Shown: in pieces, positions 7,615-22,345 of the stretch | How positions within the stretch are numbered: the first letter of the stretch is position 1 | Layout of the letters: the number at the start of each line of letters is the position of its first letter | DNA from: an uncultured Thiothrix sp. | Lineage (GTDB): Bacteria; Pseudomonadota; Gammaproteobacteria; Thiotrichales; Thiotrichaceae | Direction of reading: 5' to 3' | NCBI GenBank assembly: GCA_964293125.1 | Contig: CAXYXY010000011.1 | Span: forward strand, 16,171 to 48,170 | Length of the DNA stretch: 32,000 nucleotides | Made by a program: the position numbers and the translations under genes | Notes under the pieces: model-generated | The model's database searches: none | What the model was told of the DNA's origin: nothing | Seen by the model: the letters and a program-made list of their open reading frames with translations, nothing else

Positions 7615-7644
7615 TAGAGAGCCTCTTAATTTTAGGACTCTCTA
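7615..7644. terminator. Weak hairpin between convergent HD gene and brxL (TAGAGAG-N16-CTCTCTA)
   Basis: 7-bp inverted repeat read directly. It overlaps the brxL stop codon and the loop is AT-rich. No clear U-tract, so this call is weak. Confidence 0.2.
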
Positions 7645-9698
7645 AATATATCAACTTTTGTCTCCAGACACTTTCGCAGTATCAAGTCATTGACGCCAAC
7701 ACCGAACCAGCTATCTGGCTTTTGGAAAAAGTCCAGACCCCGCCCTATCTTTATTATCCAGCCATTATCGATACGGATTTCACGATCATGCAAGTACTCG
7801 TTCACCTTTAAGTCGAGTGCAATGTCCAGTTCTAGCAGACTTTGTTTGAGTTCAGCCAGACGACCAGACATTTCTTTTACGTCGGTTTCGTCATCGTAGC
7901 TAGTGATCAGGGTAATATTGCGGATGCTAGGTGTCCGTATCACTGCCTCGCAGAACCTGACAAAGTTCTGAATCTGGTGAGTTGCTCGTATATATGGATC
8001 TTCAATTTCAATCGATTTAGCACATTCCAAGTAAGGACTAATGATTGAGTCGTAGCTATACCCAGTTGCACCATAATGGATTATAAAATGTTGCTCCTGA
8101 AGCTCGGGAACCGTCAATTCAGGTGTTTCTACGGGTTGTGGTTTAGGTTCTACTGGAGCAGCAGCTGTTTGTTTTTCGGGATAAACGACTTCACCTGCTC
8201 TAGCATGAATATCGCGCCGTACAGGTTCTTGGGTAGCATGGGCTAACCTTGATTCAGGGCAATAAACGATGACCTCCTGTCCTAGGGTATCCAGGTACGA
8301 GAGGTTGATTTTGGCAAATTCATCATCGGATTTGCGCTTGTTCATTTGTTCTTTCACTCGGCGGCGGGCTTCTATGGCATAGGCGACGTATTCCGTAAAC
8401 TCTTCGTCGGATGGTGAACCGGTTGGGTGTAGAATCTTCAGAAAAGCCGAAACAGTTTTCTTGATGCCTTTTTCATCCCGCCCTTCGATAGCAGTTCCCA
8501 GTTGTATACGCTTGCTGACTTCCTGATAGCGATTGGTTTGCTTCAATTGGTAATGAAAGGCTTCTGCAATGTAATCGGTAATAAATCCATAGCGATCAGT
8601 CAGGAAATCGCTACTGTTTTTGGGCATTTCCCAGCCCGGCAAATAGTTGGCGAAACGATCCATCACGGCCAGATCAAATTCTTTGGGCAAAGGTTGGAAT
8701 AGGTCATAGACCTCAGAGTTCACAATCTGCTCGACTGACAAATCCAGGTTGCCAACAAACGCCATCGACGCATCGGCAATCACCTCGACCCCACGGGAGA
8801 ATCGCCCATTGGCCATAAAGTCTTTCATGATCTGAATGGTGTCTTGGTCTTTGACCTTGATGCCTCCGACCTCATCGAATGCAACGGTATCCCAGAAGCC
8901 AACCAGGCCTATTTTCTTGCGCTGGTTGTTATAGAACAAGGTGGCTTTGGTGGCTTGTCCGCCACTGATGAGCGTGGAGTAGGGTGAGAATTCGCTGAAG
9001 AAGTAGGATTTGCCGGTGCCGCGTGGGCCTAATTCGATGAAGTTATAGTTAGGCTCCACCAAGGGCATCAGGCGGGCGATAAAGTGCAGCTTCAGCCGAT
9101 GGCTGAGTTTGCTGGGTTCTAGGCCTACCGAGCGTAGCACTGCATCGAGCCATTCATTGCGGCTAAATTCATTGCGTCCTTCACAATAGCGCTCAAAATC
9201 GAAGCGGCTCAACTGAATCGGACGTAAATCCTCGATGTAAAAGGCATAGTCATCGTCTTCAATTTCGTTGTAGGCGAGGGTGACTTCTGCCCACAAGCCG
9301 CCCTGTAATAGGCGGTCGTGATCACGGTAAAACTTTTCGCTGATCGCGACTCGGCGGGAGTCGAAGTTTTCCAATGCTGCCCAGTGACGGCGGTCGTTTT
9401 CCACGTAGTTAACGTGCACCTTATCAATAAAGCGGTACTTGCCTTTGGTGGCGACTTTGGACTGGGCTTTGTTGGCCTCGTTGGGGCGCACATAGTTATC
9501 TTGCAAGGTATCCAGTACGGCTTCCAGCCCCGCCTGGATTTCAGCAGCATCATCGCTGGCACAATAGCGAGCCAGCAAAAACTCTAACACGAAGGTCGGG
9601 ACATTAGTGCCTTTTTTGATGCGGTGTAACAAGTCTTTGCGCACCACTTTTCCATCAAAGATAGCTGTTAGTTTTTTATCCAAATCGTCCATTATCAC
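7632..9698 (-). CDS. brxL: BREX Lon-like protease/ATPase BrxL
   Basis: 688 aa. Walker A GPRGTGKSY, with size and terminal position typical of BrxL. The GTG at 9698 overlaps the pglZ stop (GTGA); an alternative ATG lies at 9692. Confidence 0.9.
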   Translation of the reverse strand: MIMDDLDKKLTAIFDGKVVRKDLLHRIKKGTNVPTFVLEFLLARYCASDDAAEIQAGLEAVLDTLQDNYVRPNEANKAQSKVATKGKYRFIDKVHVNYVENDRRHWAALENFDSRRVAISEKFYRDHDRLLQGGLWAEVTLAYNEIEDDDYAFYIEDLRPIQLSRFDFERYCEGRNEFSRNEWLDAVLRSVGLEPSKLSHRLKLHFIARLMPLVEPNYNFIELGPRGTGKSYFFSEFSPYSTLISGGQATKATLFYNNQRKKIGLVGFWDTVAFDEVGGIKVKDQDTIQIMKDFMANGRFSRGVEVIADASMAFVGNLDLSVEQIVNSEVYDLFQPLPKEFDLAVMDRFANYLPGWEMPKNSSDFLTDRYGFITDYIAEAFHYQLKQTNRYQEVSKRIQLGTAIEGRDEKGIKKTVSAFLKILHPTGSPSDEEFTEYVAYAIEARRRVKEQMNKRKSDDEFAKINLSYLDTLGQEVIVYCPESRLAHATQEPVRRDIHARAGEVVYPEKQTAAAPVEPKPQPVETPELTVPELQEQHFIIHYGATGYSYDSIISPYLECAKSIEIEDPYIRATHQIQNFVRFCEAVIRTPSIRNITLITSYDDETDVKEMSGRLAELKQSLLELDIALDLKVNEYLHDREIRIDNGWIIKIGRGLDFFQKPDSWFGVGVNDLILRKCLETKVDIFRES

Positions 9699-12223
9699 AC
9701 CGTATAGTCCGTTTCTAAGTCAAGCTGGCAATAAGCTATCAAGGTGGATGGGTTCAGGGCTTTTATTTTGAATTTACCTTCAAACTCCATTTGCATTTTC
9801 AAGGTAATCTGAATCTTATCGCCGGGTTTGAGGGTGATGGTTCCGGTTGCAGGGTTTACTCTACCACCAGGCTTGGCTTCACCGACAACATTGCCTTTCT
9901 TATCGTGCGCTTCCAGCAGGATTTCAAAATCGCTGCCGACAGAGAACATATCCTGGGTTTCGACACCCATTTCCACCACTGGCAAACGGGTGGTAATGCG
10001 CTTTGCACCGTTTTTGTAATTCAGCACGACCTGGGCTTGTTGCATGGCAGGTTGACCAGGTGCTTTCAGTTGCAGGCTAATGACCGGCACGACCAGTTCT
10101 TGTAAAGATGCGCCGCCGTGATAATACAACAGGCCAGTCCGGTAAGACGCCAAACTCAAAGGCCCACTCAAATAAGCGAAATCCCCCCGAATACCTGCCT
10201 TTTCTGCGCTGATCCGATAGTGGTTAGCATCAGCATTGCCATCTCCCAACAAACAGCGGTCATGAGTATTTTGCCAATTGCCCGCAGGTTTGGGGCAAGT
10301 GTCGCCTGCTCCGGCATGGGTATTCATAAAGAAACCGTGGTCGGTAGCAATCACCACCTCGTGGAAACCGGCATCTTTCAATTTATGGATAGCCACGCGA
10401 ATCCGTTTCAAGGCATTGATAATTTCAGCCGGGGCGGTATCCGGGTGGTTCTCGAACTGACTGTCGATTTCCACCGCACGCAGCACCAGCAATTCGGTGT
10501 GCGCTTCGATAGCGAAGCCCTTGCGCACAAACTCTTCTAGCCGCCCTTCCTGGAAGCGTTGGCCGTAGCGCTTTTTGATCCAGTCCATGCGCTGCTTAAC
10601 GGTGCTGACTTCCTGGTCATGGATGTAGGGGGTGAAGCCGCTGTCTTTTTTCACCAAGCGTAGCCCTGTCCCGGCTTCGGGCAGTAAGCTTGCCATACCC
10701 ACCAAGGTGATGCTGGGTAGCTGAGCTAGTGCGACCTGTAGGGTGACTTTACCGTCTTCTGCCAATTGTTTTTCCAACGCCATCCCTAGTTCATAGCGCA
10801 ATGCGTCGATCATCAGATAGGCGACCTTATGTCCACCCTGTTGCAGTTTAGGGGCAACCAGCTTATCGAATACGTCAGCATTCGCCAGACGTCCTGATAA
10901 GGGCCAGCCACTGTGTTGCAGATGACGGGTAAATAGCATCTGCACTTTTTCCGCTAGCTTGGCGTATTGCTTGCGCATTTGCTGCTGGACGGATTTCATC
11001 ACGCCTTGCACATCTTGCCACTCATAATCGCTGACTGCTTGTTCAAACTCCCGTTGCAAACGATCGACTTCGCGCAATTGGCGGGTGTAGAAATCCAGTA
11101 ACGCATCCATGCTTTGGGTATGTTCCGGCAAGCTGCGTTCTTTGTCCTGACAAGACTCCAGCAAGGCCAGGGCAGCACGCAGCAAGTCCCATTGGGTCTG
11201 GCTTTCGCCTTTGCCTGTCCAGACCGACTGGGCGTGGCGTTGCAGGATTTCCCTAACCTTATCGGTGTCGTCGCGCAATAGGGCTTCGATGGTGCGTTGC
11301 AGGAAGGTGCGCTCTTCAAACGGGAAGGTGTCGCGTGCGCCTAAGTCTTGCATGTGACCGCAGGAATCAGATAAGCCGAGTTCGGTTTCGATAGCTTCCG
11401 CCCGCTCGATGTAGATGTTCTGGGTGTTACGGTCGCTGCGCAGGCGTTCGCAAAGGTCTTCGATCAATGGCTGGGCGGCATCCAGCGCACGCGGCACATC
11501 GTGCAGGCTGGCGGGCAGCATCTCAGGTAAATCAAACACGAACTCACTGAACAAGACGAATCGCCACAACTCTTCCGTAATAGCTGACCAGGTTTTGCCG
11601 CGTGTTTTCAAGTGCAGCCCGATGCTGGCTTGCAATAGCTCCTTAGTCTCTGCTACCCAGGCATCGTTGGTTTTGAGTGATTCTTGCTGGTTGGCAGTCG
11701 GTACAAGTAAGGCAAATAGTATTTCACGGGCAGATTCGACCTTGAGTAAGGCACGCAAGTTCGGCCAACTGAGGCCACCGCCAATCGCGTCAATCACCGC
11801 GAAGCTGGGGTTGGGGTTTTGCGCGAAGACTGCACGGATTTGGGTGGCGTGGTCGGGTTTGGCTTGTAGGCACAAGCTCTGGAATCCGTCGCCATCACCA
11901 ACGGGAAAGACTGCCCCGCAGGCTGCGTACAGTGCAAAGGGGTCTTGCTGCCGCTCCTCATCTTCCAGTGGTACGCTGGCAGGCACATAAACCAGTAATT
12001 GTTGGATGGGATTCCGCTCAGCACCCATTTGGCTCAAGGTGGCAATTGCCTGAGCGCGGCTAGTAATACTGGATTCACTGGCATTCACCACGACTCGCTT
12101 GTCACTTGCCATATCTAGACACAGGTCGTGGTAACGCCGTTCAGGGTCATACACCACCATAACCTGATGTTTCTTTAGGCGCGGCTCAAACACCTCTGTT
12201 TTGATAAATTCTGCAATCGACAT
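9695..12223 (-). CDS. pglZ: BREX alkaline-phosphatase-superfamily protein PglZ
   Basis: PglZ-domain motifs MIDALRYELG and ATDHGF. About 842 aa from the ATG at 12223, which has a GGGAG RBS 7 nt upstream and lies 4 nt after the DUF4276 stop. The track's 12265 start would overlap the upstream gene. Confidence 0.9.
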   Translation of the reverse strand: MSIAEFIKTEVFEPRLKKHQVMVVYDPERRYHDLCLDMASDKRVVVNASESSITSRAQAIATLSQMGAERNPIQQLLVYVPASVPLEDEERQQDPFALYAACGAVFPVGDGDGFQSLCLQAKPDHATQIRAVFAQNPNPSFAVIDAIGGGLSWPNLRALLKVESAREILFALLVPTANQQESLKTNDAWVAETKELLQASIGLHLKTRGKTWSAITEELWRFVLFSEFVFDLPEMLPASLHDVPRALDAAQPLIEDLCERLRSDRNTQNIYIERAEAIETELGLSDSCGHMQDLGARDTFPFEERTFLQRTIEALLRDDTDKVREILQRHAQSVWTGKGESQTQWDLLRAALALLESCQDKERSLPEHTQSMDALLDFYTRQLREVDRLQREFEQAVSDYEWQDVQGVMKSVQQQMRKQYAKLAEKVQMLFTRHLQHSGWPLSGRLANADVFDKLVAPKLQQGGHKVAYLMIDALRYELGMALEKQLAEDGKVTLQVALAQLPSITLVGMASLLPEAGTGLRLVKKDSGFTPYIHDQEVSTVKQRMDWIKKRYGQRFQEGRLEEFVRKGFAIEAHTELLVLRAVEIDSQFENHPDTAPAEIINALKRIRVAIHKLKDAGFHEVVIATDHGFFMNTHAGAGDTCPKPAGNWQNTHDRCLLGDGNADANHYRISAEKAGIRGDFAYLSGPLSLASYRTGLLYYHGGASLQELVVPVISLQLKAPGQPAMQQAQVVLNYKNGAKRITTRLPVVEMGVETQDMFSVGSDFEILLEAHDKKGNVVGEAKPGGRVNPATGTITLKPGDKIQITLKMQMEFEGKFKIKALNPSTLIAYCQLDLETDYTV

Positions 12224-12227: not shown

Positions 12228-12848
12228 TTACTCCCAAGCCAATACCGTAGCAATGGCGCTGGCAAATGCGTTAAAACTGGCTGATTGGTTATTGTCAGGA
12301 TTCAGGTGTGACGCAATCTCACGCGCACATTCCAGCTTGCGTAAGCCCGTAGGGAAATACCCGGCTTTTTTCAGTACCCGCTCCAATGCCTCCCATGTCC
12401 CACCACTGATGGCGTCCGGGTCACGGTAGGGTTTCTTTTGGGGAATGCTGGCGGGTACACGTGGATAAACCTGTTGCACCGCCTTCCAATCACCAAAAAA
12501 CCAGGCTTCCAATTCCTCAATCACAATGCGGTTCACCACTTGGAAACGTTGCCCCGCTGCTACCCTTGTTTTGGTGAGTAATCCTGCCTGTTGGGCAGTT
12601 TGCTCCAGTTGCTGTTTTAAGACAGCACAATCGCTGTCGTCACGATCCACCAGCACCAGAAGCGCCCAATTGTTTGGCAACCACTGGCTGTAGCCCTTTA
12701 GCCGGGCAGGAAGCTGCTTTAACAAGTCGTCTTTGCATTGGAAACGGATAATCTGAAACTCGACATCCCCCAACATGCGCGGCAATAGCCCTTCCAGCGC
12801 AGCCTCCATGGAAATTTCTTCCACCAGTACGATGAGCTTTTCCAGCAT
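12228..12848 (-). CDS. DUF4276-like small protein with a Toprim-like acidic motif pattern
   Basis: 206 aa. N-terminal strand plus acidic LIVLVEEISMEAA, then VLVDRDDSD (DxD) and VIEELEAWFF. This matches my memory of DUF4276 and resembles the Toprim E...DxD arrangement. Its ATG is 3 nt after the ATPase stop. Confidence 0.65.
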   Translation of the reverse strand: MLEKLIVLVEEISMEAALEGLLPRMLGDVEFQIIRFQCKDDLLKQLPARLKGYSQWLPNNWALLVLVDRDDSDCAVLKQQLEQTAQQAGLLTKTRVAAGQRFQVVNRIVIEELEAWFFGDWKAVQQVYPRVPASIPQKKPYRDPDAISGGTWEALERVLKKAGYFPTGLRKLECAREIASHLNPDNNQSASFNAFASAIATVLAWE

Positions 12849-12851
12849 CCG

Positions 12852-14096
12852 CTATTTTCCTATTGCTTTTTTTCTGGGTGCGCCAAGGTTCACCAGTGGG
12901 TCGCCCAAACCGAAATGCCCTTCCATCCACAAATAACCAAGGCTTGCCCCGGCTTTGACGAATTCGTTAATGCCCTGAATCTCCGCTGCGCATACCGCTT
13001 GGGTGAAACCGTGTTCGTCACGGTACAACACGCGCACTTCCTCCGGGTGCATGGCATTCAGCAAGAAAGGGGAATGGCTGGTAATGAGCAGTTGTGAGCG
13101 TTCAGACGCTGCCCGGCATTCTTCCGCCAGTTCTGGCAGCAGGCGCGGGTGCAGGAAATTTTCCGGCTCTTCGATGCCGATAAAGCGCGGCGGGTCGGGG
13201 TCATACAGCATGGTCAAATAAGCCAGCATCTTCATCGTGCCATCCGAGGCATATTTGGCTAGTACGGGTTGCTCGAAAGGCGCATCCTTGATTTGCAACA
13301 ATAAACGCCCATCCGGCATGGGTTCTGCTTCTACCCGTTCCAGCCGGGGGATGCGCTGGCGTAATACTTTAAAAATCTGCTCCAGACGTTCGGGGTGTTG
13401 CTCTTTCAGGTACTGGATGACATTGGGTAGGTTTTCACCGCTCTTACTCAGGCGTTCTTGTGGTCCGGCTTCGGGTTGGTTACGTGTCTGGTCAATCGAC
13501 AGGTAAGACACGTACCAGTTGGTGATAAATTCGCGCAACGCGGCAACGCGGGGGTGATTGGAAAACTGCCCCAAGGTGTTCACGGCGATCAGGTCGGGGG
13601 AGCGCAAATGGGTTTCTTCGCGGATGTCGTCTTCGTCCGGGGTTTCGCCGCTGGCGGCGCGACCAATCCCACGGGAAAATTCCAGAAAGCGGAACGGCTT
13701 GCCTTTGCTGCCGCGCCGCCATTGCAGCCATTCCTCGACCACTTCGGGGCCTTTAGCGCCTTCGTCGATAGCCAAGTGGTAGGTAATGATCGGGCTTTTG
13801 GGCTTTTCGCGGTATTTCAACTCGAATACGATGGGGCCACTTGCACCACGGCTTTTTAGCTCCCGCCCCCTGCCGCGCCTATCCCAAGCATGGCGTAAAC
13901 CGTATTGGAAGCATTCAGACAGGAAGTTGAACACATCAAACAGGGTCGATTTGCCGCTGCCGTTCGGCCCCAGTAACACGGTCATGGGGGTGAGCTTGTT
14001 CAGCTCGATTTTTCTGAGGGCGCGGTAGTTTTCGACGCGGAGTGATTCAATGCGCGGGATACCGTTTGCACTGTTTAGGGTTTCTTCAACAGCCAT
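12852..14096 (-). CDS. ABC-type AAA_15/AAA_21 family ATPase (OLD/AriA/PtuA-like)
   Basis: 414 aa. Walker [10 protein letters not shown], signature-like ASDGTMKML, Walker [16 protein letters not shown]-loop ITSHSP. AGGGAG RBS 7 nt upstream of the ATG. Lies 39 nt downstream of the pglX stop. Confidence 0.85.
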
Positions 14097-14135
14097 GTGT
14101 AGCTCCCTGTGGGGTTCGGGTTGTCCTTACTGCCA

Positions 14136-17100
14136 TTACATCATCCCTGCTATTTTGGTGCGAATCAATGCGTGCAACTGTGCATCCGTCATGGGGATGG
14201 GTTGCCATTCGAGTTTGGTTTCACCGCTGCCTTTTTTGCCGCGTTTGGTTTCGACTGCTACTTCATGCCAAAAGTCGGCTTCGACATCGTGGGCAATCGC
14301 CAGACTGCGGTCTTGGTGGCACTTGCGTAGTACGCGCTCAGGCCAGATGCTGTAGGCGAGGTGCGCCCAGTCGTAGTCGCCTTGTTCGAGTGCTTGCCAA
14401 GTTTCCTTGAGTTTTTTCTGCCAGGCTTTGTGCTGGAACAGTTTCCAGAGTGGCGCGGCGGTGATTTGCACACCGTCGTTGAGGTTCGGCTTCCAGAATT
14501 TGGCAATCCGCAGCAGCTCATCACGGAAATCCTTGAGTTCGGCTTCCAAGTCCAGCAGGCGGGCGAAATCCTTTTCCTCCTGACTGTTGCGGGTCTTGTT
14601 GCGCAAGCCAGTTAGGTCATCCTTGACCGTTTTCAGCTTCGGCTCCACGAAATCATTCACGCAGGTGTATAGCGTCTGTTCGCTCAGGCGATGGTAGTAC
14701 ACCCACAGTGTGTAAGAACCGGACGGGGTTTGCAAAGGCCAATAAATCGGCGCTTGCCGTCCAGATGATGAATAGCGGCTCAGATGAAAATCAAAAAAGC
14801 CGTTCGACTGTTCAATAAATGTTTCTAAACTCTTGGAACTCACGAAATCAGAAAAAAATTGAGTAATTTCAGTGTAATCGAATCCTAGAGAATTCGATTG
14901 GATGGCTGTAAGCAAGCTGGGGGCATCCAGTATTCCTATAAACCCTTTTTCATTGTCTTCAATAGCCCAGCGATCAAAGCAAACGCCAAAGAGGTAAACC
15001 AATAAATCTAGAATCAGCAACTTGGCAATTTCACAATTATCACGCTCAGACCACCTGGGAATGCACTCCTGAGGTGTCTTCTTTGAATAACTATTTAAAT
15101 CTTTTAAATCTTCGATCCCTTCAATTTTATAAATAGCATTAACTAATTCATCTATGTCGTTATGGATTTTCATAACTCCAGCCTGATCAAAACTTAATTC
15201 CACCACAAAATCATGCAATTGAGATCGCAGATCTTTTTGTGATAATAAATATGGTGATTTAAAGAATATTGTTGTTTCGTCCCATGAAAAGTATTTTTCC
15301 TTCAAGGAAATGATTTCTTCGACCTTACTTACTATTTGTTTTTTTAATTTATAGGAAGATGCTTCAAAATCAGGAGCAGGCATAAGATTAATATACCCGG
15401 AATACTTATGTTGGCCAGCATAAGTATTTAATATCCTAGATGCAAAAGTCGAGTTAAGAATAGCTAATACAAGAAGGCTCGTTTCTTTGTTTTCAATTGG
15501 AATACATTGCCCTTCAACCGTAAAGATTGCCTCTTTATTCATTATGTGAGCATCTAAATATTCACCTCTTTTTCCAAAGCATACGCCAGGTTTAAAATGT
15601 TGATTTTTATTTTGGATTCTATATGAGTATGACGGAAAATTATCCGATCCTAATTTTTTATATTTTCCATATTTGGCTACTTCTCGCTTAGGATTGGCAT
15701 ACCTAGTAAATTCCCCGCCATTGTATAAATAACAATATTCAGCTTCAGCACCAATTTTTTCATTCAGAGGTAACTCCCAAAAAACTCGAAAATGCCTTTC
15801 AGATTGCAATTGATGGCCTGTATATCCTGTCAAACCTAATGCAGAAAATGACTGAAGGGATTGAAAAGTATTTAGCAGGCCAGAGGGAAGATCATAAATC
15901 AAGGCTGAATTAGGGAAGCTATTGAAGCAACTGGTTTTATGTAATACGAAATTTTTATTTTGAACGATTTCAAACAAAGCCTTAGATTTTTCGTCGAGTG
16001 AAAAGTCTCTCAAATTAATAAAATAGGTTAACGGCTTTGAATGTTTTCGCTCACTCAGAATTAGAGACGAAACTTCAACGTTTGCTTCTAGTACATCCCA
16101 TCCCAAGTCACAAATTAACTCCAAGGAGTCTGATTCGAGAAGAACTCGTTTTCTAAAATTCTCATAAGAAGATTTATTAATAGGGCTTCTATCAATTACA
16201 GATCCAGTTAAACCTCCCTCACCCAACTTTTTGCTTAATCTAGAAATGAACGCACACAGAATATTTTTCGACCACTCAGGGTAGGTTTTTTCCAAATAAC
16301 GATTTGTATTCGCTGCACATTCGCCAAACGGGGGGTTCATGAGGACGACATCGAAGCGTTTGCGGCAGAGGTCGATAAAGGCGAAGCCTTTGGCGGCATC
16401 GTCGGCGAACAGGCGTTTTTGGTCGGATTGAGTGGATGCCTGGCTGGCGTAGTCGCTCAGGGCTTGCAGGATGCGCTGCTCGGCATCATCCCAGAAGGTT
16501 GCATCGTTAATCCCCCGCAAGTCAAACCCCAACTCGCGCTGCGGTGTCGCCGCCACCAATTCCGCCGGGAACATATCCCAACTCGTACCCTTGGCGGATT
16601 GCTGTTGCCACTGCGCCCGCGCCCCGGCAATCGCCCCCTGCATTTCCTCCTCGATCTTCAACAGCGTGCCCGCTTCCCCCGCCAGTTGCATCTTGTCGAA
16701 TACCCCCTCCACCAACTGCCCCAACACCGGCGGATACAACTGCGCGGTAAACTCCTGCAACAAGGCTTTCTCCCCCGGCATCGGCTCCGCACACACAATA
16801 TTCGATCGCCGGATCACCGGACGAACCTGCGGCTTCACCCGCAATACCTGCCAAGCCCGCTGCGCCCGCTGCCACAACGATAAGCCCGCAATCTGCACCG
16901 CACGCGGATCAATATCCACCCCATGAATATTGCGCTCAATAATCAACTTGGGGATTTGCACCTGAAACGCTTCAAAACTGGCATAAGTCGCCTGCAACGG
17001 CTGCAAGCCCGCACTACGGCTAAACGCTTGCGGCCCCAGCTCACTTTCCAGTTGCCAAGCCTCCTCATAAATCCGCACAAACAGGTCAAACGCATACAAA

Positions 17101-18113
17101 CCAAAATGCATCGAGCCACATGCCGGGTCGAGCATCAGAATATCGCGTGGGTCTTTTAAAGGGCGATGGGGAAACCCCTCCCCAACCCTCCCCTTATCAG
17201 GGAAGGGAGCTTTATCACACTCCGCCACACTATCCAAACTGGCATCTTCGCTCCTCCCCTGATAAGGGGAGGCTGGGAGGGGTTTCTCCCGCACCAAATA
17301 CCGGCAAGCCTCCACCAGCCCGGTCTTACCCTGCGTCATCTCATACCAGATGCGCCCCAAGGTATTATCGGTGAGGAACTCCACCACATAACGCGGCGTG
17401 AAAAACTGGTTGCGCACCGCCAATTCACGGCTATTGCGCGGCGCTTGCGACTCGGAGCGCATTTTCTTGCGCTCTTCCTGCGAATTGAAATACTGGTAAA
17501 TCCAGCCGATGGTTTCATCTTCCGCCCATAACGGCTCCAGATCAGGGTGGTTGATCTGCTCCAGCAACTCCAGCAACGCAGCCTCACGCGGGAACAAACG
17601 CCCCTGTGGGCTATAGCGATCAAACAACACCGCCAAATCCAGACTGAACTCATCAAACAGGCTGAACAGATAATGCCGGTAAGCATCGCCCGTTTCCCCC
17701 AGACTGCTGCCCGCCAACTGCTTGTACAACTGGAAACCTTTCGAGTTATACCCCTTAGCGACCGACTCCAGCAAAAAGCCCCGCGCCTCTGCCATGCGCA
17801 AAGCCGCCAACCGATTCAATACGGTGAACGCCTGCTCACGCACAATCCGCGCCGACACCTGCTGGGTACGCTCCTTTGGCGTCTTGCCGGGCGTATTCGC
17901 CAGATAATGCGTCAAGGTTTCCCGCAAACCCTGCGCCACCTGCCGCTGGCGGTTATCCAGTTGGCTCAATGCACTGACTTCCGCGACCGTGCCGGTTTTC
18001 GGGTCAAGCCCGTAAGTGGCCTGCAACTGGCGGGTGAATTCCTCGCTCAAACCGTCGCGGGCGGCATTGACGAACTTTTGCAGCCGGTTACGGGTACTTT
18101 GATCAAATGCCAT
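14136..18113 (-). CDS. pglX: BREX N6-adenine DNA methyltransferase/specificity subunit PglX
   Basis: 1325 aa. N-terminus typical of PglX (RNRLQKFVNAARDGLSEEFTRQL), motif I LDPACGSMHF, catalytic motif IV NPPF (residues 593-596). Sits between brxC and pglZ. AAGGAAA RBS upstream of the ATG at 18113. Confidence 0.9.
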   Translation of the reverse strand: MAFDQSTRNRLQKFVNAARDGLSEEFTRQLQATYGLDPKTGTVAEVSALSQLDNRQRQVAQGLRETLTHYLANTPGKTPKERTQQVSARIVREQAFTVLNRLAALRMAEARGFLLESVAKGYNSKGFQLYKQLAGSSLGETGDAYRHYLFSLFDEFSLDLAVLFDRYSPQGRLFPREAALLELLEQINHPDLEPLWAEDETIGWIYQYFNSQEERKKMRSESQAPRNSRELAVRNQFFTPRYVVEFLTDNTLGRIWYEMTQGKTGLVEACRYLVREKPLPASPYQGRSEDASLDSVAECDKAPFPDKGRVGEGFPHRPLKDPRDILMLDPACGSMHFGLYAFDLFVRIYEEAWQLESELGPQAFSRSAGLQPLQATYASFEAFQVQIPKLIIERNIHGVDIDPRAVQIAGLSLWQRAQRAWQVLRVKPQVRPVIRRSNIVCAEPMPGEKALLQEFTAQLYPPVLGQLVEGVFDKMQLAGEAGTLLKIEEEMQGAIAGARAQWQQQSAKGTSWDMFPAELVAATPQRELGFDLRGINDATFWDDAEQRILQALSDYASQASTQSDQKRLFADDAAKGFAFIDLCRKRFDVVLMNPPFGECAANTNRYLEKTYPEWSKNILCAFISRLSKKLGEGGLTGSVIDRSPINKSSYENFRKRVLLESDSLELICDLGWDVLEANVEVSSLILSERKHSKPLTYFINLRDFSLDEKSKALFEIVQNKNFVLHKTSCFNSFPNSALIYDLPSGLLNTFQSLQSFSALGLTGYTGHQLQSERHFRVFWELPLNEKIGAEAEYCYLYNGGEFTRYANPKREVAKYGKYKKLGSDNFPSYSYRIQNKNQHFKPGVCFGKRGEYLDAHIMNKEAIFTVEGQCIPIENKETSLLVLAILNSTFASRILNTYAGQHKYSGYINLMPAPDFEASSYKLKKQIVSKVEEIISLKEKYFSWDETTIFFKSPYLLSQKDLRSQLHDFVVELSFDQAGVMKIHNDIDELVNAIYKIEGIEDLKDLNSYSKKTPQECIPRWSERDNCEIAKLLILDLLVYLFGVCFDRWAIEDNEKGFIGILDAPSLLTAIQSNSLGFDYTEITQFFSDFVSSKSLETFIEQSNGFFDFHLSRYSSSGRQAPIYWPLQTPSGSYTLWVYYHRLSEQTLYTCVNDFVEPKLKTVKDDLTGLRNKTRNSQEEKDFARLLDLEAELKDFRDELLRIAKFWKPNLNDGVQITAAPLWKLFQHKAWQKKLKETWQALEQGDYDWAHLAYSIWPERVLRKCHQDRSLAIAHDVEADFWHEVAVETKRGKKGSGETKLEWQPIPMTDAQLHALIRTKIAGMM
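14780..16320 (-). other. AT-rich segment inside pglX (residues ~598-1111: distal methyltransferase half plus presumed target-recognition region)
   Basis: Hand counts of sample 60-nt lines give about 25-30% GC here (15301, 15901) against about 63% in the adjacent pglX 5' part (16561). The upper boundary falls immediately 3' of the NPPF codons. The lower boundary falls just before the conserved PIYWPL...WVYYHRL block. Confidence 0.75.
17168..17290. repeat. Imperfect palindromic REP/MITE-like element inserted in frame in pglX
   Basis: The left arm GGGGAAACCCCTCCCCAACCCTCCCCTTATCAGGGAAGGGAG (17168-17209) pairs with the reverse complement of 17251-17290 (GGGAGAAACCCCTCCCAGCCTCCCCTTATCAGGGGAGGAG). 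Conserved blocks are GAAACCCCTCCC and CTCCCCTTATCAGGG, with a ~41-nt spacer. It encodes the low-complexity peptide REKPLPASPYQGRS...PFPDKGRVGEGFPH (residues ~275-316). Confidence 0.65.
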
Positions 18114-18122: not shown

Positions 18123-21100
18123 TTACTCTGCGGCTTTCAGTTCAATGCTCAGTTCAAATTCGTGGGCGTATTTCAGTTCACCACGTACATGCTGTAATTC
18201 GGCAATCAGTGCATCCAGGTCTGCCAACACAGTAACACGCGGCGGAGCTTTTACGAAACGGGTGATTTTCTTCTTACCCTCCTTGACTGCCTGCTCCTGC
18301 TCCTCCCGCAACTTGTCCTGCAAACGCTGTTGGCCGATACGCCGCAAGCGCTGTTTCACATCCTGCACCTGGGTTTGGATGCTGTATTCCTGATTCACCA
18401 GGGTACGCAAACCACTCAGATCGGCATTGGCAGTCACCGTCAACTGCTCCAAATCTGCCAGCAGGTTGTTTTGCTCCTGCTGGGTCAGTTCTTTCCACTC
18501 AGGAATGCGGTACAGGTCTTGCTGGGTGTCTTTGATACGCTGCTGTTGCTCGCCTTGCATCGCCAATACCGTGTCACGAATCCTTGCTTGCAAGGTGGTC
18601 AGGCCACTGGCGAATTCGGTGGCGTAACGGAAGAAGTCGGCATGACTTAAGCGTTCTTTGAGGTTGGCGAGTGTTTCCGCCAGTTCCTCTTTCAAACGCC
18701 CCGGCGTGCCACTATCCGGCAGGTTGCTCAGTTCGCGGCGGTGGCGTTGCAGGTTTTGCAGGGTCGGTTCCAGCCCCTGTTCCAGCGCCCGTTTCAACTC
18801 ACCCGCCCAACGCAGATTATTAAACAGGTCGGAATCTTCCCCGCCCAAGCGTTGTGGCGCGTCGGATGCATCCGTAAACAGGATGTCCTTGATGTCCTGA
18901 CTGAGCGTTTCTAAGCGCTCGACACCCGGCAATTGCAATGCTTTGAGCTTTTCCGCCAAGGGGCCATATTGGTGCTGGAGTTGTGGAAACAGCTTAGTGG
19001 TCGCTTTGCTGATGTCATCCTCCAGCGGCACGACCATATCGCCACTGAGTTCGGTCAAACGGCTGGCAGCATTCGCCAGCATTTCCATGCTGGGGCGCTC
19101 TTCGCGCAGGGAGACGCCAATGCTTTTGAAGCTGTTATTGGTCTTGAGCGCATCAATCGCTTGTTGTCCATTGACGGTGACTTCCCGCCCCGCCACTTTC
19201 AGTTTGATTTCCCCCGCCACCAACATCGCAGCCATCAGGTAACGCAGGGTATCCGGCGACCAACCGTAAGGCGCATCAGTGAAAATATCCGTCAGGCGTT
19301 TGCCTTCCATTAACCCTTGCCGTTCAATCATGTCGCGGATGCTGGTCATGGCTTTGTGGCTGGTGTTGATGGAAGGGCGACCAGCCTGTGTTTGCACCAA
19401 ATTCAAGGGATCTAATAAGTTGGTGATGCCGGTCAAGTTGCCTTGGCGCAGGAATTTTTCTGCCAGGTCAGTATTCGCCCGTACCGGTGCTTCGCTGTAA
19501 CGGTCAAACACTTGCTCTGCGACACCTGCCAGGTGTTTGCGGGCAGCTTCGATCAATTCCTGATGCAGCGTTTCTACTGCAGTCACTTCACCCCGGAAAA
19601 TGAATGAGCCTTGCAACAGGCTACGCTTGAGCAGGCGCTCCAGCTCTACCAGCAAACGGTTGGCCCGGTCTGTTTGCCCGGCGCAGTAGTCTTTGATTTC
19701 CTGATCGGGTTCATTACGGTATTTGCTGACAATTTCCTTGCTGCGATGAATTTCAGCGGTCAGCTCTTCCATTTCTGGCAGGGTGCGCCCCAGCAGGAAG
19801 AGGGTATGCGTGGCGGTTTTATGACGGCTTTCATCAATCATGCGTGCCTTGGCGGTGTTGTAGTTTGCCGGTTCCACCAGCTCCACCACGGTTTGCACCG
19901 TATTACGCTCACCCGACAATGAAGCAGGCACGCCACCCGCGTTTTGGGCTTTTAACCCGGTCTGGACAGATAAATTCCCATGCAAATGGGTAGCGGGTAA
20001 AGGCGAATACGCTTCACGCAGTGCTTCATTCTGGATACGGCGCATCTCCATCGCCCGTAGTGGAATGGCAGCGCGTTCCTGTTCAATATCATTGAGCTTT
20101 TCACTGAAAAACAGCAGTTGCCCATCCTGTTCGCCAAACGGCACGAAGGCATCGCTGATCAGCTCCTCAATGGCCTGTTTCACGGCATCCGAGTGGGATG
20201 AGGCGCTAATACCGGGGTGCATGAGACTAGCAACGTTTTGCACCGTAATCGGCAAGTTATTCAGGATTTGCAGCACACACACCGTTTTACCAATGTCTCG
20301 GTGCAATCCTGAAGTAGGGAAGTGCTGCTTGACTTTGCCGACTGCTGCATGAAGAGAAGCAAAAGAACGACGTATGTCTTTTTCCAAAGCATCAAACAAT
20401 GTGATGGTCGTTGCCAGCCAGCCAACCGACTGATTGGCAATTGGCGTATGCCCGTCCGCACCTTCCACCAGTACATCCTGAACCACCTTGATAGCGGAAC
20501 GCAGACCAATACCACCAGTGGATTTAGCTAAAGCGCCCAACAAATGCAGCAAAATATCGAAATGCGCAGGCAGGAACGGGTAAAGGTTAACAAAGGTTTG
20601 CCGGTCAAAATCAGCACCGTAGGCACGCGCATCCACCAATTTGGTATTATGCCGCAGGGCTTGGCCGTGCTTATCGAATAAAGTGCCTAGCTCGCCCTCA
20701 CCCTGGGGAGACTTGCCCAACAATCGGCTATAACAAATTTCCTTGATGTCATTGGCTTCGAGGTCGATCTGGATGGGGAAGCGGTCTTTGAGCTTGTAGA
20801 GTTCGGCTGAATTCAAGGCAACTTTTGAATCATCTTCGGTCAGGGTTTGCTGGGCAGTACCGATGATCCAGACTTTGCCGTTACCGATGTTCTTGAGGTT
20901 TTTCGCCAAGCCATCCAGGTTCAGGATCAGGTTCTGGCGGGAGCCGACGTATTGGCCCACTTCGTCGATAATAAAGATGATGTATTCTTTGCCAGTGGCC
21001 TCACGGGCAATGTCCAGCATTTCCCCCACCCGGTCATTTTCAAAGCGGATCACTTCGCTGGTTTCGGTTGAGAATGAATGGGCGGTTTTAAATAGTCCCG

Positions 21101-21755
21101 GATACATTTGGTGGGCAATTTCAGGGATCAGGCTGTCCACCACCAATTCGTCGTTACGGTAGTTTTGCCATTCCTCCCCGCCGGTATGTTCGCGGAACAG
21201 TTGCAGGAATTCGGCATGGCGGCCTTCTTTTTGCAGCTTGCGTTCAAAGGCGGCCACTTTCAGGTTGCGTGAATAACCCGCCCATTGCAGCACCTTGTAA
21301 TACAGCACGGTGGAAACTTCTTCCATCGTCGCCCCAGCCACCTGTTCACTGGCCAGGTCAAGCATCAGCACGGCGGCGGGGAAACGCTTGGCAACCGTAT
21401 TCAGCAAGGCTTTGGTGGTGGATTTTTTTAGGCGGTCTTGCAGGTGCTGGATGAACGGACTGCCATCAATCTTGATATTGTCGTCAAACGCCAAGCCCAG
21501 ATACTTGGTGAACGAGCTTTTGCCCGAGCCGTAGAAGCCGGAAACCCATACACCGACTTCATTCTCCCCACCTGCTTCCATCGCCATCTGCATCTTGCTG
21601 AGCAGCTTTTCAAATTGCTCTTCGATGCTTTCCGTCACCACGTACTCGGAGATTTCCGCTTTCAAGCGTTGCTCTTGGGAAACGCCATAGGTAATGACTT
21701 TCTCAATGGTGCGGTAGATGTCTTTGTCGTTGGCGAATAGTGCTTTGATTTCCAT
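18123..21755 (-). CDS. brxC: BREX P-loop ATPase BrxC/PglY
   Basis: About 1210 aa. Walker A GFYGSGKSSFTKYLG, a large coiled C-terminal region, and the expected position after brxB. Start set at ATG 21755 (AGGGGA RBS); the track's TTG at 21776 overlaps the brxB stop. Confidence 0.9.
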   Translation of the reverse strand: MEIKALFANDKDIYRTIEKVITYGVSQEQRLKAEISEYVVTESIEEQFEKLLSKMQMAMEAGGENEVGVWVSGFYGSGKSSFTKYLGLAFDDNIKIDGSPFIQHLQDRLKKSTTKALLNTVAKRFPAAVLMLDLASEQVAGATMEEVSTVLYYKVLQWAGYSRNLKVAAFERKLQKEGRHAEFLQLFREHTGGEEWQNYRNDELVVDSLIPEIAHQMYPGLFKTAHSFSTETSEVIRFENDRVGEMLDIAREATGKEYIIFIIDEVGQYVGSRQNLILNLDGLAKNLKNIGNGKVWIIGTAQQTLTEDDSKVALNSAELYKLKDRFPIQIDLEANDIKEICYSRLLGKSPQGEGELGTLFDKHGQALRHNTKLVDARAYGADFDRQTFVNLYPFLPAHFDILLHLLGALAKSTGGIGLRSAIKVVQDVLVEGADGHTPIANQSVGWLATTITLFDALEKDIRRSFASLHAAVGKVKQHFPTSGLHRDIGKTVCVLQILNNLPITVQNVASLMHPGISASSHSDAVKQAIEELISDAFVPFGEQDGQLLFFSEKLNDIEQERAAIPLRAMEMRRIQNEALREAYSPLPATHLHGNLSVQTGLKAQNAGGVPASLSGERNTVQTVVELVEPANYNTAKARMIDESRHKTATHTLFLLGRTLPEMEELTAEIHRSKEIVSKYRNEPDQEIKDYCAGQTDRANRLLVELERLLKRSLLQGSFIFRGEVTAVETLHQELIEAARKHLAGVAEQVFDRYSEAPVRANTDLAEKFLRQGNLTGITNLLDPLNLVQTQAGRPSINTSHKAMTSIRDMIERQGLMEGKRLTDIFTDAPYGWSPDTLRYLMAAMLVAGEIKLKVAGREVTVNGQQAIDALKTNNSFKSIGVSLREERPSMEMLANAASRLTELSGDMVVPLEDDISKATTKLFPQLQHQYGPLAEKLKALQLPGVERLETLSQDIKDILFTDASDAPQRLGGEDSDLFNNLRWAGELKRALEQGLEPTLQNLQRHRRELSNLPDSGTPGRLKEELAETLANLKERLSHADFFRYATEFASGLTTLQARIRDTVLAMQGEQQQRIKDTQQDLYRIPEWKELTQQEQNNLLADLEQLTVTANADLSGLRTLVNQEYSIQTQVQDVKQRLRRIGQQRLQDKLREEQEQAVKEGKKKITRFVKAPPRVTVLADLDALIAELQHVRGELKYAHEFELSIELKAAE

Positions 21756-21772
21756 TGTGTTCCCCTGATTAT

Positions 21773-22345
21773 TCAACCACCGACGTGGACAGAGCGATAA
21801 TTACCATCTTCTGGATAGAAGCCCAAAAATTTCAGCCGGGTTTTCCCGGTACGCACGCCGGGATAGAAAAACACGGTGGGCACATGGAACCTGCCGTGGA
21901 GCTGGTTCTCAATGGAACCAATCCGCAAGTAGGGATGTAGCGCCTCTATGTCCGCCACCAGCAAAATGTTGTTTGCCTGCCCTTCCAAGCTGGCAAGCAC
22001 TGCTTCAAGCTTGTTTTGCAAGGAACCATTTGTTAGTGCATTCGCCAATGACTTATTGGTTTTCTCCCATTGCAAGGGGGCTTTGGCATCAGCAGCCAAC
22101 CAGATTTTTTTCAAGGGCGCGGCATCCAGAATGTCCTGAATAGCTTGAGCTATCGAGAATTTATGGACGTTCCACCCCTCATTTCGTAGCTTCGCTTCCC
22201 ACGCTGGCAGGTTGCGTTTTACCTCCAGAATCTCTGCCGGGTGAAACACCAGGTAAAAGATGGGTTCGAAACTGGCGTGACCGACTTCCCGCCCTGTTTT
22301 TAGTCGTTCCACCAATTCGCTGAAATCAGTTTTGAGTGATGACAT
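21773..22345 (-). CDS. brxB: BREX protein BrxB (DUF1788)
   Basis: 190 aa. The size, the position between brxA and brxC, and motifs (PIFYLVFHP, ALHPYLRIGSIE, VPTVFFYPG, GNYR) match my memory of DUF1788. Confidence 0.85.
   Translation of the reverse strand: MSSLKTDFSELVERLKTGREVGHASFEPIFYLVFHPAEILEVKRNLPAWEAKLRNEGWNVHKFSIAQAIQDILDAAPLKKIWLAADAKAPLQWEKTNKSLANALTNGSLQNKLEAVLASLEGQANNILLVADIEALHPYLRIGSIENQLHGRFHVPTVFFYPGVRTGKTRLKFLGFYPEDGNYRSVHVGG

Follow-up and report, generated by a model that had tools for sequence, protein, structure and literature searches.

The window, that is, the whole 32,000-nucleotide stretch of DNA that was analyzed, harbors a complete type 1 BREX operon in which brxA, brxB, brxC, pglX, pglZ, and brxL are co-oriented on the minus strand, each being matched by a PADLOC model at an E value of 6e-103 or lower (0 for three of them), in agreement with Pfam. 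In the PADLOC scan, the best match of every operon gene was either a BREX or an HEC-01 model. At the head of the operon lies a BrxE-family ORF (23111 to 23635; NCBIfam NF033447, 148 bits, the cut-off being 40), followed by brxA (22326 to 23138; PADLOC BrxA, 6e-103), brxB (21773 to 22345; BrxB, 2e-103), brxC (18123 to 21776; BrxC, E = 0), and pglX (14136 to 18113), a single ORF encoding a BREX methyltransferase and specificity subunit of 1325 aa (PADLOC PDLC02527, E = 0; Pfam Eco57I). The operon continues with pglZ (9695 to 12223; PADLOC PDLC02561, E = 0), whose product comprises 842 aa, and brxL (7632 to 9698; Pfam BrxL_N, BrxL_ATPase, and MIT_C at 2e-49; PADLOC BrxL, 4e-284), all of these genes being located on the minus strand. 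The encoded BrxL carries a C-terminal PLD-like (MIT_C/HKD) domain and, as judged by these domain matches, is an HKD/PLD-like variant.

In the textbook BREX operon, pglX is directly followed by pglZ. The window harbors two additional minus-strand ORFs at this junction, at positions 12852 to 14096 (414 aa) and 12228 to 12848 (206 aa), which specify an ABC ATPase and a DUF4276 protein, respectively, the successive spacers from pglX to pglZ measuring 39, 3, and 4 nt. When the DNA was read directly, the pglX stop codon TAA was found at 14138 to 14136 and the ATPase ATG at 14096, with the intervening 39-nt spacer (14097 to 14135, minus strand) containing the sequence GGGAG at 14107 to 14103, 6 nt ahead of the ATG. 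The ATPase gene ends with TAG at 12854 to 12852 and is separated by the trinucleotide CGG from the DUF4276 ATG at 12848; the DUF4276 gene, in turn, ends with TAA at 12230 to 12228, followed by GCAT and the pglZ ATG at 12223, the Shine-Dalgarno sequence of pglZ (GGGAG, 12235 to 12231) being formed by the terminal Trp-Glu codons of the DUF4276 gene. A longer pglZ with a TTG start at 12265 was called by the ORF lister, but the ATG at 12223 is the likely start, because the PADLOC PglZ profile aligns residues 1 to 842, counted from that ATG, with positions 1 to 840 of its 840 positions. The GC content of the ATPase and DUF4276 genes is 0.53 to 0.56, in contrast to the 0.33 to 0.40 of the pglX region at approximately 14500 to 16500. 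The two co-oriented genes, the 3- and 4-nt spacings, the position of the pglZ GGGAG within DUF4276 codons, and an operon-like GC content unlike that of AT-rich pglX had all been described in a first-pass annotation of this DNA, and each was borne out. A promoter and terminator scan of the BREX operon returned counts that did not exceed those of shuffled sequences, with no site at the junctions; the 39-nt spacer contains no promoter-like or terminator-like site on the minus strand. The pair is probably expressed by read-through from the BREX operon.

The gene at 12852 to 14096 (minus strand) is predicted, on the basis of Pfam, PADLOC, sequence motifs, and Foldseek, to encode an HEC-01A-type OLD-family ABC ATPase. 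Its product matches Pfam AAA_21 (9e-32) and AAA_15 (4e-17), and its residues 14 to 399 align with positions 2 to 404 of the 406-position PADLOC HEC-01A profile PDLC04182 (E = 3.2e-164). The motifs GPNGSGKST (aa 43 to 51), RFIGIEEPE (304 to 312), and TSHSP (339 to 343) are present, and the functional sites were assigned as Walker A (G43 to T51), the Q-loop (Q177), a signature-like S284-D-G-T-x-K289, Walker B with the D-loop (E309-E310-P-E-N313), and the H-loop (H341). The Walker A, Q-loop, signature, Walker B, and H-loop residues are invariant across 77 homologs, the sets used for conservation comprising 77 to 80 homologs of 51 to 88% identity; the ATPase itself retains 80 to 88% identity across phyla. 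The structural model of this protein is only moderate (pLDDT of 65.6, from a shallow alignment of 83 to 87% identity) and was read at the fold level alone, where Foldseek returned PtuA, Thermus OLD, and GajA as the best PDB matches.

The gene at 12228 to 12848 (minus strand) encodes an HEC-01B-type DUF4276 protein, for which Pfam, PADLOC, AlphaFold2 (AF2), and Foldseek point to a Toprim-fold nuclease. The protein covers positions 1 to 191 of the 192-position Pfam DUF4276 profile (9e-33), and its residues 4 to 202 align with positions 2 to 200 of the 204-position PADLOC HEC-01B profile PDLC04202 (E = 9.9e-88); at E values of up to 10, HEC-01 models were the only PADLOC models that it matched. 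Its acidic motifs are VEE (9 to 11), DRDD (68 to 71), and EELE (111 to 114), which the AF2 model (pLDDT of 83.7, pTM of 0.82) arranges with E10 after strand 1, D68-R-D70 after strand 3, and E111, E112, and E114 after strand 4. No variation was seen among 80 sequences in the Glu, the DxD, or the additional acidic cluster. The top PDB match of this confident model, and the only one to stand out, is 6nk8, the C-terminal region of a Burkholderia OLD protein (BpOLD) with its Toprim domain, at a probability of 0.99, with a modest degree of structural similarity (TM-score of 0.47 to 0.48, E = 1.7e-3). A search of PDB sequences with a profile built from the DUF4276 alignment produced nothing meaningful. 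An exact look-up of the protein returned no identical record, and the nearest contigs were reached via P0001, which is 98% identical to it. The Pfam families and the motifs of both proteins that the first-pass annotation had named were all retrieved, as was the Toprim-like fold with conserved acidic residues that it had read into the smaller protein. The Pfam and PADLOC matches, the structural matches, and the conserved motifs together support its proposal of a split OLD-like module, in which the ATPase and the predicted Toprim-like protein are specified as two polypeptides.

Both proteins match their HEC-01A and HEC-01B models over nearly the full length, and the pair, by this profile-based assignment, is HEC-01, an already catalogued candidate cassette. 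HEC-01 (Hma-embedded candidate 01, PADLOC-DB v2) is an ABC ATPase and TOPRIM candidate that was found by virtue of its embedding (Payne et al., bioRxiv 10.1101/2024.01.29.577857). The window pair shares with it the two-gene arrangement of an ABC ATPase with a TOPRIM-like (DUF4276) protein embedded in multigene defense operons, but HEC-01 was originally defined from Hma systems, whereas the copy described here occupies the pglX-pglZ junction of a type 1 BREX system. No defense was detected for the HEC-01 representative of Payne et al. (bioRxiv 10.1101/2024.01.29.577857), while one representative from a cold-seep metagenome protected Escherichia coli against at least one of the phages T4, T5, and T7, with a positive plaque assay (PMC12881386).

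The pair also resembles several better-known systems. OLD-ABC and TOPRIM modules, proposed as "backup effectors" of BREX, have been found recurrently in or beside BREX and BREX-related loci (NAR 2026, PMC12839542), OLD-ABC-linked nucleases being present in at least 1242 taxa and the TOPRIM-linked version being the most prominent (PMC12839542); the statement in the first-pass annotation that no functional link to BREX had been described is, therefore, superseded. That survey takes TOPRIM-linked modules as PARIS-like (PMC12839542), but the window pair is not PARIS, as the partner of its ATPase belongs to DUF4276 rather than to DUF4435 (AriB), and no AriB or DUF4435 match to the small protein was obtained in Pfam or, at E values of up to 10, in PADLOC. 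Similarities to PARIS (AriA/AriB) are nevertheless apparent in the split of an ABC ATPase sensor from a distinct Toprim nuclease effector, a two-polypeptide layout like that of class 4 (PARIS), and in the capacity to reside within type 1 BREX (PMC11464382, PMC11341690). The ATPase matched AriA models at 1.6e-31 and 7.7e-21, against 3e-164 for HEC-01A, and, at the level of these profile scores, the similarity to AriA appears to reflect shared AAA_21 ancestry only. PARIS is, furthermore, often phage- or satellite-borne, whereas plasmids (10 of 72,556 records) and phages (2 records) seldom carry the family of the window pair.

Mad3 and Mad4 of the MADS system similarly pair an AAA_21-type ABC ATPase with a downstream DUF4276-family Toprim protein, within a methylation-based defense operon (PMC12065111, PMC11464382). 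The ATPase, however, scored 128 bits against the NCBIfam MAD3 equivalog, below its cut-off of 420, and mad3 (1e-23) was the only mad model among its listed PADLOC matches; no mad4 model matched the small protein (PADLOC, E values of up to 10), and the mandatory MADS genes mad6, mad7, and mad8 were not found in the operon by the PADLOC scan. Mad3/Mad4 is, thus, a more distant relative than HEC-01. P2 Old and the class 1 and 2 OLD proteins, together with Gabija GajA, share with the pair an OLD-type ABC ATPase and a Toprim core with Glu and DxD residues, and both proteins found their best structural matches among OLD/GajA structures (6nk8, 6p74, and GajA). In OLD and GajA, however, the two domains are fused, whereas in the window they are distributed over two ORFs, with a stop codon and 3 nt between them; Gabija additionally possesses the GajB helicase, which the window pair lacks. 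The matches of the ATPase to the GajA and PtuA models in PADLOC were partial (approximately 1e-15), and neither a GajB helicase nor a PtuB HNH partner is present, DUF4276 being the sole partner of the ATPase.

PrrC and RloA-RloB present a further parallel, as these ABC ATPase-linked nucleases reside among the hsd genes of type I restriction-modification operons, and the family of the window pair also occurs in the order hsdS-[pair]-hsdR. PrrC differs in consisting of one protein that includes an anticodon-nuclease domain, and RloB, although placed in the Toprim superfamily like DUF4276 (PMC12065111), belongs to a separate Pfam family with no match in the window. PD-T4-4 (Vassallo et al. 2022), in which a small nuclease accompanies an ABC-type ATPase, had been named in the first-pass annotation as the same pair; this identity was ruled out, as PD-T4-4_B is described as a PD-(D/E)xK nuclease (PMC12137116; bioRxiv 10.1101/2025.07.10.664194), whereas the partner in the window is a DUF4276/Toprim protein with matches to HEC-01 models exclusively.

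The distribution of the pair was surveyed across 80 species-level genomes, in all of which (80/80) the ATPase gene is located immediately upstream of the DUF4276 gene, and such a pairing is, therefore, not attributable to chance. The stop-to-start distance, as estimated by homology, is 11 nt or less, or an overlap, in most of these genomes. This constant order, the short distances, and strong purifying selection suggest that the two genes act as a unit. At least 30 of the 80 loci (38%) lie inside type 1 BREX, type 2 BREX (pglW-pglX-[pair]-pglY), or type I restriction-modification (R-M) operons (hsdM-hsdS-[pair]-hsdR), always co-oriented with the surrounding genes. Standalone pairs adjoin genes for AcrB, a histidine kinase, a decarboxylase, and MiaA, and among the large neighbors at eight non-BREX loci, PADLOC produced no defense match for six, Pfam identifying housekeeping genes. 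The tree places all 19 BREX-embedded pairs in one clade of approximately 37 sequences, within which standalone and BREX-embedded copies interleave. Because the pair occurs in type I R-M, in type 2 BREX, and as standalone copies, interleaved in the tree, it appears to be autonomous from BREX. We consider it somewhat probable that the pair represents an autonomous two-component candidate antiphage module of the HEC-01 type, carried as cargo by a type 1 BREX system at its pglX-pglZ insertion hot-spot, and the R-M, type 2 BREX, standalone, and other-cargo contexts favor the nested, independent defense that the first-pass annotation had listed as one of its two hypotheses.

The many copies adjoining housekeeping genes would also suit a pair that is not primarily antiphage, being instead a selfish addiction or toxin-antitoxin-like cassette, stabilizing any locus that receives it, or a DNA-repair-type ATPase-nuclease that hitch-hikes in a permissive site. 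Such a role would be in keeping with the lack of detectable defense in the hands of Payne et al. (bioRxiv 10.1101/2024.01.29.577857), with a degree of conservation that is very high for an immune sensor, and with the rarity of the family on plasmids and phages, but is rendered improbable by the co-oriented copies within methylation-based defense operons, by the defense genes that constitute the other cargo at the same site, and by the one positive HEC-01 plaque assay (PMC12881386).

This site was assessed in 80 metagenomic BREX relatives, whose pglX-pglZ junction is empty in approximately 31, harbors the HEC-01 pair in 7, and harbors other cargo in approximately 32, such that approximately 90% of the informative related BREX loci are without the pair. 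The direct pglX-to-pglZ arrangement that the first-pass annotation had called canonical, thus, holds for the textbook operon but not for the majority of these relatives. The other cargo, which includes DUF262/GmrSD-like proteins, SoFic, and HEC-07, consists of defense genes, and the pair, as one of several cargos that use this previously known hot-spot for insertion, is not a novel BREX component. These counts bear directly on the second hypothesis of the first-pass annotation, namely, that the pair is an accessory effector supplying a nuclease needed for BREX restriction. The co-orientation and tight spacing of the two genes within the operon and the intact predicted nuclease site of the small protein are compatible with such a function, which we regard as very improbable nonetheless, given the empty junctions and unrelated cargo in so many relatives, the occurrence of the pair, including members of the same clade, outside BREX in R-M operons and as standalone copies, and a history unlike that of the flanking BREX genes. 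Its premise that BREX lacks a nuclease is also dated, as PglZ was found to be a nuclease by earlier studies cited in the NAR 2026 survey (PMC12839542), which, in addition, describes HKD-nuclease BrxL variants of the kind predicted for the window.

Compared with the closest relative, dN/dS values were 0.016 for the ATPase gene and 0.067 for the DUF4276 gene, which, by this measure, are both under strong purifying selection. The dS of the pair was 0.13; that of brxB, brxC, pglZ, and brxL ranged from 0.5 to 3.6, and the substitution data indicate that the recombination history of the pair is separate from that of the flanking BREX genes. Within pglX, the AT-rich segment at 14759 to 16315 (minus strand; approximately aa 600 to 1118; GC content of 0.33 to 0.40) has no blastn match in the closest relative, L081, although its flanks are 87 to 96% identical, and this segment appears to be a replaced specificity region. 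The block that was recently exchanged in the lineage of the window links this pglX specificity region with the pair and with the 5'-terminal part of pglZ. The BREX-associated HEC-01 clade evolves approximately half as fast as PglZ, and distances between pairs correlate with those between PglZ proteins (Mantel r = 0.66, p = 2e-4), a correlation that remains compatible with a functional tie to BREX.

Such a tie would be expected if the pair were a dedicated BREX guard after the PrrC/EcoprrI or PARIS model, in which the ATPase monitors PglX or the BREX complex, or senses inhibitors such as Ocr-like mimics, and the Toprim nuclease is unleashed only once BREX has been neutralized, the link then being functional and not just genetic. 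Consistent with this possibility are the confinement of all BREX-embedded copies to one clade, the position of 18 of these 19 in the pglX-pglZ interval (mostly at -14 to +30 nt before pglZ), the co-variation with PglZ, the composition of the exchanged block, and the proportion of loci in methyltransferase-based systems; the same logic has been proposed for embedded ABC-ATPase systems by Payne et al. (bioRxiv 10.1101/2024.01.29.577857) and in the NAR 2026 survey (PMC12839542). We nevertheless consider a guard function rather unlikely, since standalone copies of the same clade are found beside housekeeping genes (L008, L013, L014, L033, and L035), one BREX locus (L024) carries the pair between pglZ and brxL, most informative BREX relatives are without it, and PARIS embedded in the BREX locus of Salmonella D23580 displayed neither cross-talk with BREX nor a response to Ocr (PMC11341690). 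A more specific form, in which the HEC-01 of the BREX clade acts as a PrrC-like sentinel specialized for BREX, monitors PglX or the BREX complex through physical contact, and deploys its Toprim nuclease once BREX has been disabled by a phage inhibitor such as a DNA mimic or SAM-depleting enzyme, is more doubtful still; were it correct, the joint exchange of these pglX, pair, and pglZ sequences would reflect co-adaptation of methyltransferase and guard.

To our knowledge, none of the DUF4276 Toprim proteins has a demonstrated mechanism. For the autonomous module that we favor, a course of action may be proposed by analogy to PARIS, OLD, and Septu, whereby the OLD-family ABC ATPase would oligomerize and keep the DUF4276 Toprim nuclease inactive. 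The ATPase might then sense a phage-derived cue, for which an anti-restriction protein or a signal of replication or DNA damage is plausible, along with ATP binding or hydrolysis, upon which the Toprim nuclease would be freed or activated and could cleave either tRNA, like AriB, or DNA, like OLD and GajA, thus aborting the infection. The benefit to BREX would lie in a co-inherited and co-regulated second layer of defense and not in a catalytic step of BREX itself.

Certain observations sit less comfortably with an autonomous defense. They include the negative result of Payne et al. for HEC-01, the moderate quality of the ATPase model, and the modest TM-scores of the Toprim match, as well as an ATPase conservation (80 to 88%) that is unusually high for a phage sensor and the Mantel correlation with PglZ distances.

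The HEC-01 cassette (Payne 2024) and OLD-ABC and Toprim backup effectors in BREX (NAR 2026) were already known, and the picture of how BREX works is unchanged by the pair; the window contributes a clear, well-conserved HEC-01 example in a defined genetic setting. The comparative findings that are not obvious from the literature are that a single HEC-01 clade holds all BREX-embedded copies of the survey, that this clade evolves more slowly than PglZ and has recombined apart from its flanking BREX genes, and that it competes with GmrSD-like proteins, SoFic, and other cargos for the pglX-pglZ slot. The intact and tightly coupled pair is a reasonable subject for asking whether such modules back up BREX.

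A paired inverted-repeat element adjoins the cassette in six loci; conserved cassette-boundary sequences were rejected, the element being missing from the window and blastn-short yielding no cross-matches. The idea that the conserved ATPase gene serves as the homology arm through which the pglX specificity segment is swapped was likewise discarded, the two breakpoints (16315 and 14759) both being located within pglX, and approximately 620 nt of conserved pglX 3' end lie between the unrelated pglX segment and the ATPase gene.

Profile searches of the ORFs on the minus strand of the window delineated a complete type 1 BREX operon, in which a two-gene cassette is inserted between pglX and pglZ. 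The operon comprises brxA (22326-23138), brxB (21773-22345), brxC (18123-21776), pglX (14136-18113, a single fused ORF of 1325 aa), the ATPase gene (12852-14096, 414 aa), the DUF4276 gene (12228-12848, 206 aa), pglZ (9695-12223) and brxL (7632-9698), all on the minus strand. This otherwise type 1 operon is headed by a BrxE-family ORF (23111-23635, minus strand, 174 aa; NCBIfam BrxE, 148 bits with the cut-off at 40) which has no match in Pfam or PADLOC; BrxE is usually assigned to type 6 BREX. In the product of brxL, a PLD-like MIT_C domain (aa 546-686, E 2e-49) takes the C-terminal place of the Lon-protease-like domain, as in the BrxL-HKD endoDNase variant that the NAR 2026 survey (PMC12839542) reported for 1030 of 2913 type 1 BREX taxa. 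Because ordinary metabolic genes (glutamine-synthetase-like, aminotransferase, FAD oxidoreductase, decarboxylase and nitrilase-type hydrolase) lie on both sides, the BREX operon is a single inserted locus rather than part of a large defence island.

Direct reading of the DNA places 39 nt, including a GGGAG, between pglX and the ATPase gene, 3 nt between the ATPase and DUF4276 genes, and 4 nt between the DUF4276 stop and the pglZ ATG, with the GGGAG that serves pglZ located inside the final DUF4276 codons. The position of the pair between pglX and pglZ, its coordinates, the two short gaps and the embedded pglZ ribosome-binding site are all as the first-pass annotation had them. As a consensus scan detected no promoter-like or terminator-like site at the pair's junctions, co-transcription of the pair with the BREX genes is likely.

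In Pfam, the 414-aa protein falls under AAA_21 (9e-32) and also AAA_15, its top PADLOC model being HEC-01A (PDLC04182, 3e-164, nearly full length), followed in descending order by weaker matches to AriA, AbiLi, mad3, NsnB, PtuA and GajA. Across 77 aligned homologues, each from a different species, the Walker A motif G43-x-N-G-S-G-K49-x-T51, Q177, the signature-like S284-D-G-T-x-K289, E309-E310-P-E-N313 and H341-S-P are invariant, so that it appears to be an ABC ATPase with catalytic competence. Its AlphaFold model, built from a shallow alignment, is of moderate quality (pLDDT 65.6); its nearest neighbours in the PDB, namely PtuA of Septu and of retrons, Thermus OLD and GajA of Gabija, all belong to the defence-type OLD-family ABC ATPases, and a phmmer search of PDB sequences was concordant.

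The 206-aa protein is covered end to end by Pfam DUF4276 (9e-33) and matches PADLOC HEC-01B (PDLC04202, 1e-87). At E ≤ 10, PADLOC returned HEC-01 models alone, those of AriB, mad4 and PD-T4-4 being absent, and NCBIfam returned no model. The AlphaFold model is confident (pLDDT 83.7, pTM 0.82) and alternates strands and helices, with strand 1 (residues 4-9) followed by E10 and E11, strand 3 (61-68) leading into D68-R-D70-D71, and strand 4 (108-110) followed by E111, E112 and E114. Among 350,542 PDB chains, Foldseek found one outstanding match, 6nk8 (probability 0.99, E 1.7e-3, TM 0.47-0.48), the Toprim-containing C-terminal region of OLD from Burkholderia pseudomallei. Residues E10, D68, D70, E111, E112 and E114, and likewise D120, D145, E153, E156 and K171, are invariant in 80 DUF4276 sequences of 51-76% identity. 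DUF4276 has been placed in the Toprim superfamily by Payne et al. (bioRxiv 10.1101/2024.01.29.577857) and by the Menshen study (PMC12065111). Since the model, the invariant residues and both published assignments agree, the earlier reading of the pair as a split OLD-like ATPase plus Toprim-like module stands.

The system matching the pair is HEC-01, in which, by the definition of Payne et al., a TOPRIM protein accompanies an ABC ATPase; it has the same two components, but was defined from copies embedded in Hma systems, whereas the window copy lies in BREX. The earlier equation of the pair with PD-T4-4 was rejected, as two independent papers (PMC12137116; bioRxiv 10.1101/2025.07.10.664194) class PD-T4-4_B among the PD-(D/E)xK nucleases. 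Mad3/Mad4 of MADS bear a more distant resemblance (PMC12065111, PMC11464382), the window ATPase reaching only 128 bits against the MAD3 equivalog cut-off of 420.

Homologues of the DUF4276 protein exceed 5,000, and the best 120 of these, spread over many phyla, are all at least 67% identical. In a context survey of one genome per species, which returned 80 loci, the ATPase gene was immediately upstream of the DUF4276 gene in all 80, with a stop-to-start distance of 11 nt or less, or an overlap, in most (a homology-based estimate). The context was type 1 BREX in 19 loci, with the pair in the pglX-pglZ interval in 18 and between pglZ and brxL in L024; additional genes lay between the pair and pglZ in two BREX loci and between pglX and the pair in two. 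A conserved gene of ~210 aa without a PADLOC match separates pglX from the ATPase gene in loci L007 (5908-6528) and L019 (6696-7337), with a SoFic gene just upstream of it in L007. Type I R-M provided the context in 9/80 loci (the full hsdM-(PDC-S02)-hsdS-[pair]-hsdR order in 7) and type 2 BREX/Pgl in 2 (pglW-pglX-[pair]-pglY), while many pairs were standalone, adjoining housekeeping genes such as those for AcrB, a histidine kinase, ornithine decarboxylase and MiaA. A Meiothermus taiwanensis plasmid (L085; NZ_CP021131, 47824-59681), annotated as hsdM-DUF262-hsdS-DUF4433-macro-[AAA ATPase-DUF4276]-hsdR, holds three consecutive cassettes between hsdM and hsdR of one type I R-M operon: DUF262, DUF4433 plus macro-domain (DarT/DarG-like), and ATPase-DUF4276. 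Upstream of the pair in a Giesbergeria MAG (L038, 1813-8370), several mad3-/mad8-like ATPase matches fall in one long ORF, which may represent a MADS-like neighbourhood or a high-GC ORF-calling artefact. With the pair concatenated, a neighbour-joining tree placed all BREX-embedded copies in one clade of ~37 sequences, inside which standalone copies interleave. Members of the family seldom occur on plasmids (10 of 72,556 records) or in phages (2 records).

The ABC ATPase, intact and strongly constrained, is coupled to a likewise intact Toprim-like protein that always adjoins it; co-oriented embedding of the pair in methylation-based defence operons recurs, but the pair can also exist outside them. 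We consider it reasonably probable that it is an autonomous defence module, in keeping with the nested-defence part of the first-pass interpretation. That it is a non-defence or selfish cassette, a reading to be weighed with both the housekeeping neighbours and the repeated embedding in defence operons, appears decidedly unlikely.

Viewed from BREX, in 80 metagenomic loci with a PglZ sharing 53-76% identity with that of the window, the junction was empty in ~31 (pglX straight to pglZ, gap ≤140 nt), held this pair in 7 and held other cargo in ~32, most commonly a ~620-aa DUF262/GmrSD-like protein (HEC-05- or HEC-06-like) and, further, SoFic, HEC-07-like and other genes. A core nuclease role, with the pair supplying an activity that BREX was supposed to lack, is, with the junction occupied in some loci and empty in others, highly improbable. 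The survey is concordant with the report of Went et al. of genes between pglX and pglZ in ~7,000 of ~9,000 BREX loci, and with Payne et al. on embedding in general. The NAR 2026 survey (PMC12839542) described OLD-ABC ATPases linked to TOPRIM or other nucleases in BREX loci of at least 1,242 taxa, reading these linked modules as backup suicidal effectors; the embedding is, therefore, real but already published, as the family is already catalogued, and the earlier statement that no functional link to BREX had been described fails.

Among 16 BREX-embedded loci, distances between pairs track those between the PglZ proteins (Mantel r=0.66, p=2e-4). The pair is thus often inherited along with the BREX operon, and it diverges about half as fast as PglZ (mean p-distance 0.18 vs 0.32). 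A BREX-specific guard function, to be read against both this co-inheritance and the copies outside BREX, is unlikely. Relative to the closest relative, a metagenomic contig (L081) of identical gene order, the pair shows 97% DNA identity (dS ~0.13; dN/dS 0.016 and 0.067), against 79-88% (dS 0.5-3.6) for brxB, brxC, pglZ and brxL; judging from these values, the pair has a history of its own, apart from the flanking BREX genes. The high-identity block extends from mid-pglX (~17150) to ~300 nt into pglZ (~11900), so that the operon centre (specificity region plus cassette) has undergone exchange by recombination more recently than its flanks. It is interrupted by a 1.56-kb AT-rich pglX stretch (14759-16315, minus strand; ~aa 600-1118 of PglX, GC 0.33-0.40) without any similarity to L081, although the sequence on either side of the stretch is 87-98% identical (96% over the 842 nt just 5′). 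This stretch looks as though a lower-GC donor had recently supplied a new specificity (TRD) region, and the specificity segment would thus have been replaced again after the exchange.

In the closest relatives and at least 8 species (surveyed loci L081-L084, L004, L010, L011, L018, L020 and L034), PglX is split into two translationally coupled ORFs of ~640-660 aa each, with a conserved junction (...AAAYVLEKQA* then MT.FLRLL..., ATGA-type 4-nt overlap); no mention of a split PglX was found in the NAR 2026 BREX survey.

Published experimental support for HEC-01 defence is thin and mixed, one representative having given no protection (Payne et al., bioRxiv 10.1101/2024.01.29.577857) and another having been protective against one or more of T4, T5 and T7 (PMC12881386). 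If PARIS (PMC11464382), OLD, Gabija and Septu are a guide, sensing and regulation would fall to the ATPase, and the Toprim protein would be the nuclease effector, set free or activated when a phage infects. The infection would then be aborted or the invading nucleic acid degraded, with either tRNA or DNA as the possible substrate. To our knowledge, no DUF4276 Toprim system has yet been mechanistically dissected.

Paired inverted repeats, TTGTGGnGCAT-N-ATGAGCGACAA, often in two copies, adjoin the cassette in six loci (L004 8678-8712; L018 8678-8742; L023 3300-3334; L030 730-794; L007 5780-5814; L003 10671-10694) and are absent from the window's junctions. In four of these loci, BREX-embedded as well as standalone, the repeats immediately precede the ATPase ribosome-binding site, while those of L007 lie upstream of an extra gene and those of L003 between the DUF4276 gene and pglZ. 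Of 16 matches to the pattern, ~13 fell at these six loci, and shuffled sequences yielded 0-1; the element may serve as an operator or mark the boundary of the cassette.
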